Shown: in pieces, positions 11,305 through 58,399 of the stretch | Numbering within the stretch: the stretch's first letter is position 1 | Layout of the letters: each line of letters begins with the position of its first letter | Origin: Cetorhinus maximus | Lineage: Eukaryota | Direction of reading: 5' to 3' | Length of the DNA: 64,000 nt | Assembly: GCF_964194155.1 (NCBI RefSeq) | Contig: NC_135901.1 | Location: 7,626,001 to 7,690,000, forward strand | The notes under the pieces: generated by a model | What the model was told of the DNA's origin: nothing | The model's database searches: none | The model's input: only the letters and a program-made list of their open reading frames with translations | Program-made: the position numbers and the translations under genes

Positions 11305-11640
11305 ATGTTGTGAATTTCTATCCTGGACTGACGGATGGATTTTGGAAACTCCTTTTACAGGGGGTGAGAAGGGGTGAATTTCCATACAGCAAACTCAAAC
11401 GAAAAGTAATGTTTTTCTCTTCTAAATTTCTATCCTGGAAATTTCTATCTTGGACTGACAATGAAGGTCTTTGTAAATTTGTTTTACAGGGTTATTAGAA
11501 GTGGAGGATTGACAGACGGGAAACTCAAACCAAACGTCACATCCAGATCTGACAGAGTCACTCGATTCATCAGAACCTGAATATCATCAGCATCTGAATG
11601 TGGAATGAAAAAGGTTTGTCTGTTCTGTCTGTGGAAAAGC
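11305..11640 (+). pseudogene. ZNF gene 5' fragment: duplicated acceptor, leader and half finger
   Basis: Two copies of AATTTCTATC..TTTTACAG (AG ends 11360 and 11489); leader QTGNSNQTSHPDLTESLDSSEPEYH; then FVCSVCGK cut by CR1 debris. Confidence 0.75.
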
Positions 11641-11659
11641 ACCAAGACGCACAAACCCT

Positions 11660-12950
11660 GGGTTAGACCACACCTAGATAATACGTTCAGTTTTGTGCAA
11701 CAAACTAAGGAAGGATAGAATGGTCTTGGAGAGAGTGTAGCACAGATTTACCTGAGTGATACCTGAACTCCAAGGGTTTAATTACAAAATGAGATTACAG
11801 GAAATACCCATAGAGTCACAATGGCACAGAGGAGGCCATTTGTACCATTTAGCCCATGCCAGCTCTCCAGAGCAATCCAGTGAGACCAATTCCCCTGCTC
11901 CACATCCCTGTATCCTTGCAAGTTTATTTCCCTAAAGTGCCTATTCTCCTTCACATCCCCCTCTATCTCTTCCCCAAAAACTTAAATCTGTACCCCCTTG
12001 TACAATCAACTGATGGGAACAGATTTTCTTTGTCCACCTTATCTAAAGCTCATAATTTAGTATACCTCTTTCAATCTACCCTCACCTCTTTGCTAGAACC
12101 ATTCGTTTAAATCTCCTCTGCGCCTTCTCAAGGACCTTTACATCTTTCCTGAAATGTGGTGATCAGAACTGGACACAAATACTCGGGTTGTGGCCTAACC
12201 AGAGCCTAACAAAGATTCAGCATAACTTCCTTGCTTTTGTACTCAATAGCTCTATTTATGAAGCTCAAGATTCCATATACCTTGCTAACTGCTCTCTTAA
12301 TCTATCCTGTCACCCTCAAAAAATCTCTGCACATAAAGGGCCAGATCCCTCTGACTCTGTACACTGTTTCGAGCTGTGCCATGAGGCCACTATTGTCTTT
12401 CTCTCTCTATCCTTCCTGTCAAAATCCATCACCTCGCTGTGAAGGTTGTAATCTCTGAAATTTGGAAGATTAAGAGGTGATTTGATTAATGGTTTCAGGA
12501 TGTTAATTGGAATTGACAGGGTAGATAGAGAGAACTATTTCCACTGGTTGGGGAATCTAGGACAAGTGGGCGGAGTCAAACATAGAATCAGGTTCCAGCA
12601 GCTTTTCAGGGAGAGAAATGTTGTTGCAGAAACTCCTGAACTCGATGTTGAGTTCTAAAGGTCGTAAAGTGCCGAATCAAAAAATGAGCTGCTGTTCCTG
12701 GAGCTCCCACTGAGCTTCATTGGAACAGTTCAAGAGGCCAAGGACAGAGAGGTCAGAGTGGGAGTGGGGCGGAGAATTAAAATGACAAGTGACTGGAAGC
12801 TCAGGGTCAAGCTCACAGACTGAACGGAGGTTGTGCCACAAAGTGATCACCCAATCTGTTTTTCATCTTCCCAAGTATAGAGCAGACCAGATCATGAGCA
12901 GTTAATACAGTAACTCAGCTGCAAGAAGTACAAGTAAATCACTGTTTGTT
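11660..12950. mobile_element. Old CR1 fragments plus PLE fragment (about 12590-12950, minus)
   Basis: CR1 3'-type sequence on both strands; ATGAGCTGCTGTTCC..TTCATTGGAACAG shared with other PLE copies. Confidence 0.65.
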
Positions 12951-12989
12951 TCATCCCACAAAATCTCAAATATAACCTGAAGGAATATA

Positions 12990-54339: not shown

Positions 54340-57130
54340 TAATCCCATTTTCCAGCCCTAGGCCCATAGCCTTGTATGCCATGGCATCACAAGTGCACAT
54401 CCAAATACTTCTTAAATGTTATGAGGGTTTCTGCCTCTACCACCCTTTCAGGCAGTGAGCTCCAGATTCCACCACCCTCTGGGTGAAAAAAATTCTTCCT
54501 CACATCCCGTATAAACCTCCTGCCCCTTACCTTAAATCTATGCCCCCTGGTTATTGATCCCTCCACCAAGGGGAAAAGTTCCTTCCTGTCTACCCTATCT
54601 ATGCCCCTCATAATTTTATACACCTGAATCATGCCCCCCCTCAATCTCCTCTACTCCAGGGAAAATAACCCCAGTCTATCCAATCTCTCCTCATAACTAA
54701 AACTCTCAGCTCAGGCAACATTCTGGTAAATCTCCTCTGCTCTCTCTCTCTAGTGCAATCACATCCTTCCTACAATGCGGATTCCAGAACTACACGCAAT
54801 ACTCTAGCTGTGGCCTAAGCAGAGTTTTATACAGTTCCAGCCTAACCTCCCTGCTCTTATATTCTATGCCTCGGCTAATAAAGGCAAGTATCCCAGATGC
54901 CTTTATAACCACCTTATCTACCCGTCCTGATACCTTAAGCGATTGGTGGACATGCACACCAAGGTGCCTCTGATCCTCGGTACTTCCCGGGGTCCTGTCA
55001 TTCATTGTGTATTCCCGTGCCTTGTTTCTCCTGCCCAAGTGCATCACCTCACAGTTATCCGGATTAAATTCCATTTGCCACTGATCAGCCGATCTGACCA
55101 GCCCGTCTATATCCTCCTGTAATCCTCACTATTTACCACCCCACCAATTTTCATGTCGACTACGAATTTACTGATCAACCCTTCTACATTCAAGTCTAAA
55201 TCGTTTATATATGCCACAAACAGCAAGGGATCCAACACCAATCCCTGTGGAATCCCACTGGACAAAGGCATCCAGTCACAAAAACGACCATCACCCTCTG
55301 CTTCCTGCCACTCAGCCAATTCTGGATCCAATTTGCCAAATTGCCTTGGATTCCATGGGCTCTTCGTTATCTGTCTCCGATGCGGGACCTTATCAAAAGC
55401 CTGTTTAAAGGTCTGTTTAAATCTGTGTTTTACTGTTGCCTTAACTGGAGTGTAACTGAGAGTCAGGTTAATTAGGAGATTTTTGTAGTTTTTATAGCAG
55501 TAATTTTGTAGACATATGTATGTGCTTAAAATCTTTCTTGTATTAATAAATGTCTAATTTAGTTTTATAAAAAAAACCCGAGACTCAGTGGTCTTATTAC
55601 TACTGAATTCAAAGCCTGCATCTCAAAACATACAAATTGCAAAAATGGGTTATGACAGTTGTTTCAAGTTTCCTTCCGGGATTTGAACAACTCAGCATTT
55701 ACCATTGGATGTGTCATAATCCCCACACAACCCTCCACTCAATGGATTTCCTCCCTGGCTGCGATCATCCCTATCTCTGTAATCTCCTTCACCCACAGAA
55801 CCCCCTGAAACATTTGTTCATCTACCATCGGCCTCTTTAATATTCCAGATAATAATCACCCCACCACTGGGGGTGCTCTTTCAGTTGCCAAGACCACAAG
55901 GGTTTTAAATTCCTCCTTAAACCTCTTCGTCTCCCTATCTCAGTTTCCTCCTTTAAGGTGCTCCTCAAAACCTATCTCTGACCAAACGTTTGGTCACCTG
56001 AACTCATGTCTGCTCATGAGGCTCAGTGTCAAATTTTGCTGTGTAACATTTCTGTGAAATGTCTTGGAATATTTTATTACATTAATTTGTATTTATATCA
56101 CACTTTTGTCATTGACTTGGACATATATCACCATTCCTTCATCATCACTGGTGAATAACCTGTAACTCCTTACCTAAGAGCATTGTGGGAGCACCTTCAC
56201 CACACAGGCTGCAGCGATTCAAGAAGGTCAAACATCATCATCTCCACAGGTAACTGGGGATTGGTAATATCAGCTGGAATGTATGAAGAGAGAAACAAGG
56301 TTAACATTTCAGGTTGTGCAAAATAAATTACATGGAATTACAATGATGCAGAATTTGATGGTTAATATAAGTTCTGAAACATGAGAGAAATGTACAATCG
56401 CACCGGAAAAACAATTCCTGACTGTAAGACGCTGCAGGAAGATAAAACTGGGAAGTCGGCAGCACAAGGTCGAGGGATGAACAATGGTGGAAACCTCATT
56501 CAGACATGGTTGCTGAAGTAACAGTAAAATACTAAACACAGCTCAAACACACTCAGAGACAGAGGAAATTAGATAACAGCAAAGAGGTGATCAGGGAGGG
56601 CAGAGGTGAAACAGGGCAGTGGAAGGACATGGATTAGATCCACCAGTCCAAGAGCCATGGAACCCCTTACAGACAACACAGCATAGCACTAAAAGCTCTA
56701 AATTCTAGATGAATGGTTAACTAAGCCGACAAGTGAAACAATTTCGGTTTTCAATTTTAAAATCTCCTGCTGGAGCCTACAGGTGTAAAAATATCAGAAG
56801 CACTGGAGTCGGAGAAAAATCTCCCAGTTGAGGAAATACCCAGGGAGCGGAGGTGATGTCACTGAGCAATTGTTGGTGTGTGATGACATCACAGACACGA
56901 ACACAGAACATCTGGGTCTGTGCAAACCAGTGGTCACCACACATTATGAAGGATGTGAGGGTCCTTGAGAGGGTGCAGAGGAGGTTTACTAGGATGGTTC
57001 CAGGGATGAGGAATTTTAGTTGCAAGGTTAGGTTGGAGAAACTGGGGTTGTTCTACTTGGAGCAAACGAGATTGAGGGGAGATTTATAGAGAGGTACAAG
57101 TTTATGGCAGGTTTACATGAGGTAGATAAA

Positions 57131-57804
57131 GTGAGTTGAGATGAGTGCTTCAATCCAGTCCCACAGTAGGAGCACCTGAACGGCCTCTCACCAGTGTGAA
57201 TTCGCTGGTGTGCGGTTAGTTCAGACGACTAAATGAACCCGGTCCCGCAGTGAGAGCACCTGAATGGTCTCTCATCAGTGTGAACATGTTGATGGGACAT
57301 CAGTTCCCCAGAGCTTTTATAGCACTTCTCACAGTCTGGACATTTAAAAGGTCTCTCCCCAGTATGAACTCTCTCATGTCTCAGCACATGAGACAATTGA
57401 GTGAATCCTCTCCCACACACATAGCAGGTGAACGGTCTCTCACCACTGAATTCGCTGGTGTACAATGAGTTGAAACGATCCCCTGAACCCAGTCCCACAA
57501 TGAGAGCACCTGAATGGTCTCTCAACAGTTTGAACAAATTGATGGTACATCAGGTCCCCAGAACTTCTGTAGTATTTCCCACAGTCTGAACATTTGAAAG
57601 GTCTCTCCCAGTGCAAACCCGCTGGTGTGTCAGCAGGTTGGATAGCCGAGTGAATCCCTTTCAAAATTCGGAGCAGGTGAACGGCCTCTCCCAAGTGTGA
57701 ATGCGTCGATGAGCTTCCAGCTCAGACAGGTAACTGAACCTCTCCTCACATTCCCCACATTTCCACTGTTTCTCCCCACTGTAAACGGTGCTTTTTCCTT
57801 CCAT
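57131..57804 (-). pseudogene. C2H2 ZNF pseudogene, frameshifted and 3'-truncated
   Basis: [12 protein letters not shown] start, several frameshifts, acceptor at 57915-57914. Confidence 0.88.
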
Positions 57805-58399
57805 GTTCAAAATCTGATGACATTCAGGTTACGATAAATTGAGCGACTCCATCAGATCCTGATGTGATATTTGCTTTGAGTTTCCCAACTGCAAATCCTT
57901 CCCCTTCAATACTCTGTGAAGTTGATTTAAAACAGAAAAAAAAGAGAGTGAGAGAGAACCCACAAAAACACAAAGGCAAGTTGTGAAATTGAGATAAATG
58001 AATCTGGTAATTTGTGGAGCTGACACTAGCAAAAGTGACCATGAAAACTGCTGGATTGTCATAACAACCCAACTGGTTCACTAATGTCCTTCAGGGAAGG
58101 AAACCTGCCACCGAGACAAAGGGGAGGCAGAGAGTGAAAGAGAGGGATTTTATATATCTACAGCTCGACTAGAACTTTGACAGAATCTCCCAAATCCTCA
58201 ACCTCCACTAACTAAAAGGATGAGGGGAGCAGGTGTATGTGAACACCATCACCTCCAAGCTTCCATCCATGGACTGCAGCAGTTCAAGGAGATGGCTCAC
58301 TCCCATTTTCTCAAGGGCAATTAGGGATGGGCAATAAATGCTGGCCCAGCCTGTAACTTCCATAAATGAATTTTAAAAAACCCGAGTCACACACTGTGC

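Follow-up and report, generated by a model that had tools for sequence, protein, structure and literature searches.

In the KRAB zinc-finger genes of tetrapods and the coelacanth, the last exon carries a spacer and decayed fingers before the intact ones. In the FiNZ-ZNF genes of cyprinid fish a single finger exon comes after a short upstream exon, and FiNZ is described as a conserved translated domain of 28 amino acids (aa) with an exon to itself (PMC10547256). Families containing KRAB are reported as lost in cartilaginous fishes (PMC8455134). The main text of the FiNZ paper does not mention sharks, and a term search returned no zinc-finger passage in PMC11979771. We found no paper on the structure of the shark family described here, in a search that mostly did not reach subscription journals. 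The family was met in a 64,000-nucleotide (nt) stretch of the Cetorhinus maximus genome, hereafter the window (G000:C24:7626001-7690000, on C24, a 65-Mb contig of a 4-Gb genome), where a leader of about 109 nt opens the finger exon of C2H2 genes. An earlier note had read this leader as the fossil N-terminus of a longer protein, spliced in phase 2 to an upstream coding exon that was possibly an unrecognised effector domain. At present the leader does not code; it evolves neutrally, as 5′ untranslated region (UTR). We consider it probable that this neutral start of the last exon is a 5′ UTR remnant of a longer ancestral frame whose start moved downstream. The fossil reading was thus largely right, and a new effector domain is unsupported.

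Leader copies and fossil fingers

A nucleotide profile built on eight copies found exactly ten leaders in the window and no more at E<=10. These are the ten of the earlier note, and every one is broken in the finger frame, as it had said. The note had not given strands: six copies read on the plus strand, and the four at 33914, 44236, 51584 and 57914 on the minus strand. One of its acceptors needs correction. Behind the AG at 11360 lies a duplicated stub of 51 nt, and in each of the four runs contigs pass over this AG without splicing. No finger array follows the copies at 11360, 11489 and 16256, and the other seven precede finger open reading frames (ORFs) of 5, 8, 12, 11, 12, 5 and 1 fingers. 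The window holds 62 C2H2 motifs, and its ORFs of 5–12 fingers are C-x2-C-x12-H-x3-H arrays with conserved linkers in one exon. The leader measures 109, 103, 110, 90 and 109 nt up to the ATG at 19.7, 33.8, 44.1, 51.5 and 57.8 kb. Leader and ATG share a frame at 19.7 and 57.8 kb, as claimed before, the 57.8-kb ORF ending after 47 aa and one finger.

The family is much larger than the window. Eighty 10-kb stretches spread over C24 (0.8 Mb) gave 92 leader matches, in 44 of the stretches; scaled up to the whole contig, this makes about 7,500 copies, stubs counted. An ORF of at least four fingers lies behind 34 of the 69 full-length copies in these stretches, or about 2,800 genes on C24 by extrapolation. 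Finger motifs likewise occur in 44 of the 80 stretches, and C24 is largely a zinc-finger gene chromosome. Clustered paralogues, identical duplicates and the broken gene at 57.8 kb are what a tandem poly-C2H2 birth-and-death cluster contains.

For comparison of copies, 173 matches were reduced to 154 distinct ones by dropping 19 identical duplicates (118 full-length, 24 stubs and 12 partial). Near-identical leaders (97%) were also removed before mismatches and indels were counted and before the class A consensus was made. The full-length copies form three classes. In class B (57/118) an ATG stands at +109, in AACATGG, and the array behind it is live. Class A (47/118) has GTG at +109 and, where an array follows, a start near +360. 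Class C (14/118) has a GTAAGC donor at the +109 spot and no fingers. The 51-nt stub, with its own acceptor, lies one unit (114 nt in 10/20) upstream of many class A and C copies. The +109 ATG is present in 34/34 intact class B genes, a set chosen for having it. The TAA noted earlier at the same codon at 44.1 and 57.8 kb is present, also at 51.5 kb, and is an inherited class B character: codon 28 is TAA in 29 of the 34. Among the first 100 of 216 genome matches to the class B pattern, counted by hand, 82 have a stop there (63 TAA, 17 TAG, 2 TGA).

The ratio of nonsynonymous to synonymous change (dN/dS) was estimated by parsimony with CpG columns left out. It is 1.06 (0.78–1.58) for the leaders of 19 class A genes and 0.90 (0.68–1.21) for those of 34 class B genes, and a second estimate is similar. 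Intron gives 0.99. Live ORF starts give 0.54 (0.33–0.80) in class A and 0.47 (0.31–0.69) in class B, so that the finger ORFs are under purifying selection. Mismatches by codon position have no periodicity in the leader, either in 58 class A and C copies (0.154/0.154/0.162) or, outside CpG, in 50 class B copies (0.089/0.086/0.096). The frame is kept by 6/52 distinct leader indels in classes A and C and by 5/24 in class B; most shift it. With dN/dS near 1 in the leader against about 0.5 in live fingers, and with most indels frame-shifting, the leader is not coding now. The earlier note had proposed codon-biased substitution as a check on its reading, and the absence of periodicity goes against that reading. 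An open frame from the acceptor reaches a live array in 0/118 full-length copies and in none of the further copies examined. By a loose rule 14/118 are open for at least 34 codons, none running into a finger. Eighteen class B copies lack the codon-28 stop, and all are otherwise broken (14 by a codon-12 TGA, four by another stop or frameshift). The best 150 protein matches in the genome lie in open frames of at most 200 aa, and those fetched stop at or soon past the finger-1 stop. The consensus frame is open over its 36 codons, as had been claimed; this says little by itself, since 26% of dinucleotide shuffles are also open. Frame 0 of the leader is open as well, for 29 codons.

The case for a longer ancestor comes from class A. 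In its consensus the leader frame runs into a finger with TGA at the tryptophan position, then an (AC)n run, then two more TGA-broken fingers, and the working ATG stands in a finger-linker position (ACCATGG, +366). First cysteines are at +130, +216, +300, +384 and +468, with the broken fingers spaced 84–86 nt. The spacing between fingers 1 and 2 is exactly 84 nt in 5/19 genes and 86 nt in 6/19; the frameshift is therefore one slipped AC unit. Since the frame of the leader goes on through three broken fingers, with the working ATG placed in a linker, we read the leader as a likely fossil. A longer ancestral protein, with descendants that start at a downstream ATG and keep the leader as 5′ UTR, is well supported, as the earlier note proposed.

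Class B is shorter than the class A consensus by 146 nt, or 144 nt at 84-nt spacing, and its start ATG is leader codon 37. Class B is an in-frame deletion of fingers 1 and 2, its first finger corresponding to class A fossil finger 3. The stop in finger 1 is nearly fixed (514 exact matches with TGA versus 5 with TGG). That in finger 3 is TGA in 18/19 class A genes, where the live class B finger has CGA. The dN/dS of fossil fingers 1, 2 and 3 is 1.13, 0.85 and 0.58, a gradient consistent with erosion that began at the 5′ end, though this accounts only in part for the signal in finger 3. In the 24.2-kb gene the linker ATG is gone and a new ATG farther upstream serves as the start; start codons thus still turn over. 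In Pristiophorus, gene model P0040 starts MEKPWKC, and P0001 and P0002 end at a stop after the first half of finger 1. Erosion therefore predates the split of that lineage from the other named sharks. A separate observation is that fossil fingers 1–2 (class A UTR +160 to +260; window about 14860–14960) change slowly, at 1.3–1.5 changes per site against 1.95 in the leader, at all codon positions, and one 23-mer there is exact at 514 places. An RNA element, gene conversion or subfamily structure may lie behind this slow change.

We infer that the first 108 nt probably once coded as well. The 3′ third of the leader is in register with a finger helix (SS....HQ; p 0.003–0.03). Proteins longer than 200 aa with fingers 1–2 intact gave 14 candidates, of which 10 were generic tetrapod or unnamed finger proteins and none was from a shark, a negative that counts for little.

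The leader peptide matched 23 proteins, and all 20 named ones are from sharks. A profile search of 1.84 billion proteins gave 39 matches; its eight new named ones are again all sharks, and rays and chimaeras are absent from the named matches. P0059, P0062 and P0064, which match in many repeat stretches, were left out, and P0072 and P0075 were judged chance. Open in-frame leaders joined to fingers do occur, in automated models (models only) of Pristiophorus, Heterodontus, Stegostoma, Mustelus, Carcharodon and Cetorhinus; on this second check of the earlier note its reading passes. The sequence ahead of these leaders varies by protein (promoter read-through, acceptor read-through, histone), and we did not find a domain common to the upstream parts of either the 23 or the 39 matches. 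The fossil leader explains the arbitrary N-termini of automated shark annotations. In two Pristiophorus models, P0001 and P0010, the leader is joined to histone H2A or H2B. Descent of the leader from a histone was rejected, since the histone precedes the leader in one and follows it in the other, as gene-model chimeras would; the fusions suggest that histone genes are interspersed with the finger family in that genome.

Upstream exons and the features of the window

The features of the window are the following.

11091..11132, plus: promoter-exon block, 42-nt form, which has lost its ATG and its donor GT; one X8 contig joins a homologous block to a leader
11361..11411, plus: leader 5′ stub, 51 nt, with duplicated acceptor; tandem unit 129 nt here, mostly unspliced read-through
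11490..11640, plus: class-A-type leader and first half of fossil finger 1, truncated, no finger array behind
14704..15057, plus: class A 5′ UTR, leader and three fossil fingers with stops and frameshifts
15058..15546, plus: class A ORF from the linker ATG (ACCATGG, MEKPWKC), 162 aa, 5 fingers
15967..16007, plus: promoter-exon block, 41-nt form, ATG lost
16257..16357, plus: exon C, a leader duplicate with terminal GTAAGC donor, internal 5′ UTR exon; joint 16357->19669 (GT..AG) in X1 and X2
16736..16840, plus: conserved non-coding block 5′ of exon D, with two TGACATCA-like motifs and a GC box
16841..16892, plus: exon D, 52-nt cassette with GTGAGT donor, ending AT; depth drops past the donor, and one contig joins exon D to the leader
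19669..19777, plus: class B leader, 109 nt, in frame, two stops
19778..20533, plus: class B ORF (AACATGG, MEGK), 251 aa, 8 fingers
24155..24364, plus: class A leader, fossil fingers partly deleted
24365..25402, plus: class A ORF, 345 aa, 12 fingers; starts at a new ATG that lies upstream of the former linker ATG, now lost
33811..33913, minus: class B leader, 103 nt, interrupted by frameshifts and a stop
32848..33810, minus: class B ORF, 320 aa, 11 fingers
36602..36642, minus: promoter-exon block, 41-nt form, ATG kept; use of its weak donor would put it in phase 2 with the leader
44126..44235, minus: class B leader, 110 nt, 1-nt insertion, TAA
43004..44125, minus: class B ORF, 373 aa, 12 fingers
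48267..48307, minus: promoter-exon block, 41-nt form with ATG
51494..51583, minus: class B leader, 90 nt (19-nt deletion), TAA
50888..51493, minus: class B ORF, 201 aa, 5 fingers; more fingers lie past its stop
57805..57913, minus: class B leader, 109 nt, in frame, TAA
57661..57804, minus: class B ORF broken after 47 aa, one finger; probable pseudogene
59643..59683, minus: promoter-exon block, 41-nt form with ATG

The best-seen splice joins leader to leader. The joint 16357->19669, seen in X1 and X2, two runs that share one sample from a relative, places a class C leader upstream of the class B leader, and the exon C donor is in phase 0 of the leader frame, which goes against an effector exon. 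Further leader-to-leader joints occur in runs X2, X6 and X8; leader duplicates thus act as spliced internal exons in a relative. The stretch from promoter into leader is often unspliced in contigs. Whole cassettes of 3–4 kb are co-duplicated and open with a shared CpG promoter module, in which we take two motifs to be NRF1-like and YY1-like. YY1-like AAGATGGC motifs lie on the opposite strand inside the module at 11238–11245, 20696–20740 and 59501–59543. Several shark gene models begin at this motif (MAAV/MAAI), which suggests bidirectional promoters.

The promoter block measures 41 nt from the ATG position to GT in 52 of 130 copies and 42 nt in 70; the eight of other lengths were left out. 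Diversity is greater in the 41-nt form, which is placed upstream of class A exons (25) and class B exons (14) and changes less than its flanks. It has the ATG in 31/52 copies and the GT in 42/52, and would join the leader in phase 2. The phase-2 upstream exon of the earlier note thus has a candidate with an ATG, and the ancestor may have begun with 14 + 36 residues. As a coding exon the block fares less well, having only 14 glycine-rich codons and no significant coding signal.

Exon D lies between exons C and B in many genes, with about 1,000 candidates in the genome. It is 52 nt long in 29/63 copies and 54 nt in 23/63, with the phase-2 frame open in 22/63. A coding exon D was rejected: in 28 copies, after three partial matches were dropped, the phase-2 frame had a dN/dS of 0.73, but in 63 copies it is 0.99 (0.60–1.85), and same-sized intron windows range from 0.75 to 1.69. 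Two frames are open in the 114-nt stub unit; with a dN/dS of 1.12–1.16, it too was set aside as coding sequence. Exon D of the window ends in AT, so that splicing to the leader (16892/19669) would form an ATG at the junction and a predicted 12-codon in-frame upstream ORF (uORF). AT endings occur in 3/63 copies. A split start codon (exon end AT plus leader G) explains the MVFEG models and was not taken further, being a minority state found in those three copies and in some C copies. The block upstream of exon D, with about 1,000 genome candidates, is nearly always oriented like the neighbouring leader. Over 28 copies the block seemed strongly conserved, with 0.79 changes per site against 2.61 in its flank, but over 63 the contrast proved only modest (2.1 versus 3.1 in the 3′ flank). 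The copy at 16736–16840 is possibly a second promoter or enhancer.

The exons found upstream are the 41/42-nt promoter block, the leader duplicate and the 52–54-nt cassette, and none encodes an effector domain. Pfam assigned no family at cut-off to four open leader peptides. In ESM Atlas a natural open frame of 55 aa matched C2H2 clusters only (best 0.85, below the recognition threshold), which is a lead and no more. KRAB (PF01352) was not found on C24; the 150 candidates scored in the genome gave four matches, on C34 and C22. Neither KRAB nor SCAN was found in any of eight shark finger proteins. Three near-identical KRAB-like exons above the Pfam cut-off (L254–L256) lie at G000:C34:9.12–9.40 Mb and are, we presume, of PRDM9 type. 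Rfam gave a single chance match on the window between 10.5 and 26 kb.

Some further elements lie in the window. Positions 19640–19790 are 100% identical to sequence at C24:8146832 and to part of contig C1547, either a very recent segmental duplication or an uncollapsed haplotype. Decayed fingers at 25539–26400 (plus strand) have no leader match in front. Retroelement fragments are at 374–1787, 6336–6965, 14023–14394, 53510–54418 and 59502–60587. From their translations we take them to hold reverse-transcriptase-like frames of long interspersed element (LINE) type and, at 53.5–54.4 kb, a GIY-YIG-like frame of Penelope type.

Origin of the leader

The fossil reading suggests the following history. 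The ancestor would have had the leader and then fingers 1, 2, 3, 4 onward in one frame. New ATGs in good Kozak context would have arisen, and nonsense changes at W, C and R codons, together with the slipping (AC)n run, would then have cut off the front. Such a start-codon relay would have shortened an ORF of spacer plus fingers, the abandoned part staying as 5′ UTR and being reused as cassette exons. Cassettes of 3–4 kb from promoter to array would have multiplied by duplication, so that the same stops were inherited. The ancestral start may perhaps have been the ATG of the 41-nt promoter exon, spliced in phase 2, and the front of about 50 residues may have been a low-complexity spacer, in part a decayed finger, instead of a folded effector. 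Today's products would be bare finger arrays.

Several points weigh against this history. There is no direct sign that the first 108 nt ever coded, given how often a frame is open by chance. The helix register was chosen post hoc, and another register scores equally. Transversions alone are too noisy to separate the leader from its controls. Fossil finger 3 has a dN/dS of 0.58 (0.43–0.81) despite its break in 18/19 genes, which this history explains only in part. The 41-nt block has a non-significant dN/dS of 0.76 (0.50–1.13), or 0.59 (0.35–1.05) without CpG sites, which constraint on G-runs could mimic. Its donors are weak (GTGTAG, GTGTAA, GTGGAG), and parsimony needs four changes whichever of the 41- and 42-nt forms is taken as the root. 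Use of a promoter-block donor was seen in one contig only, from X8 and in the 42-nt form. The contigs used for splicing come from relatives, and the runs are only guessed to be RNA. In addition, an in-frame ATG at +121, just ahead of finger 1, is found in 13/19 class A genes, and the ancestor may have started within the exon.

The last point leads to the strongest alternative, that the 109-nt leader was always 5′ UTR, the ancestor starting at an exon-internal ATG (+109 or +121) and the fossil coding sequence beginning at the first linker. We regard this as unlikely, though a serious contender. A dN/dS near 1 in every frame, an open frame no rarer than the shuffles allow, the in-frame ATGs at +121 in class A and +109 in class B, and contigs that run unspliced from promoter into leader all speak for it. 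Against it stand a frame open across all 36 codons that is also the finger frame, the helix register of the 3′ third, the ATG that the more diverse promoter block puts in phase 2, and open in-frame leaders in gene models of six shark genera, each of them weak alone.

A bolder extension of the fossil reading is speculative and rather unlikely. Here the founder gene would have had a FiNZ-like effector of about 50 residues (14 codons of the promoter exon and the 36-codon acidic leader, joined in phase 2). Stops would have uncoupled it before the shark orders split, turning it across thousands of genes into an in-frame uORF that tunes translation and can be re-fused when stops are lost. If true, sharks would be a vertebrate lineage in which the effector was given up first and a chromosome of finger genes expanded afterwards.

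It is somewhat more doubtful still, and compatible with a fossil origin, that the broken leader is kept as translational control, with upstream ATGs, predicted short ORFs that stop in the leader, and selection for a stop before the finger ORF. None of the 18 class B copies without the codon-28 stop is open in phase 2, the promoter ATG block is slower than its flanks, and TAA has changed to TAG or TGA as often as to sense (19 versus 18 among the first 100 listed). However, the 18 copies are perhaps seven independent lineages and the codon-12 stop is common anyway (20/34), so that retained stops are expected by chance. The ATG is lost in 21/52 copies of the 41-nt block, and the upstream ATGs at +107 and +121 are no more conserved than their neighbours.

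Finally, a leader that was the linker to, or part of, an unrecognised effector from an upstream coding exon is very improbable: the two-part layout of domain exon and finger exon, as in KRAB and FiNZ genes (PMC10547256), the acidic leader peptide, the phase-2 ATG block and the 54-nt form of exon D with its open frames speak for it, but the 52-nt form of exon D with its neutral dN/dS, the few glycine-rich codons of the promoter block, the unrelated sequences upstream of leader matches, and the Pfam, KRAB and SCAN results do not.

Comparison with described families

We return to the fossil reading to place the family among others. Shark models named 'zinc finger protein 239-like', 'XlCGF/XlCOF-like' or 'uncharacterized' belong to the same family, and MEGK and MEKPWKC starts recur in them across several sharks. 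They differ in the arbitrary N-termini (read-through, histone H2A/H2B) set on open leaders, and leave the fossil architecture undescribed.

Like the cyprinid FiNZ-ZNF genes, the shark genes form a lineage-specific, very large tandem C2H2 family with a short exon, a finger exon and an acidic N-terminal sequence (PMC10547256). Unlike in FiNZ, the acidic stretch of the shark genes lies in the finger exon, is mostly broken and neutral, and the predicted start of translation is at or inside the array. No conserved translated N-terminus of the FiNZ type was found in the shark genes, with dN/dS about 1 in the leader, 0.99 in exon D and 0.76 in the promoter block (interval spanning 1).

The large finger families of tetrapods and cyprinids carry a repressor or effector domain, thought to be their means of transposon silencing. 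The shark family seems to encode bare arrays, and the steps by which its N-terminus was lost can still be read in it. This raises the question of how arrays without an effector act, and whether the effector was lost or never had. The family resembles the KRAB-ZNF genes in being a clustered birth-and-death family with HTGEKP-type linkers and with a spacer and decayed fingers ahead of the array. It differs from them in having no KRAB match on C24 and in that its spacer and decayed fingers are untranslated.

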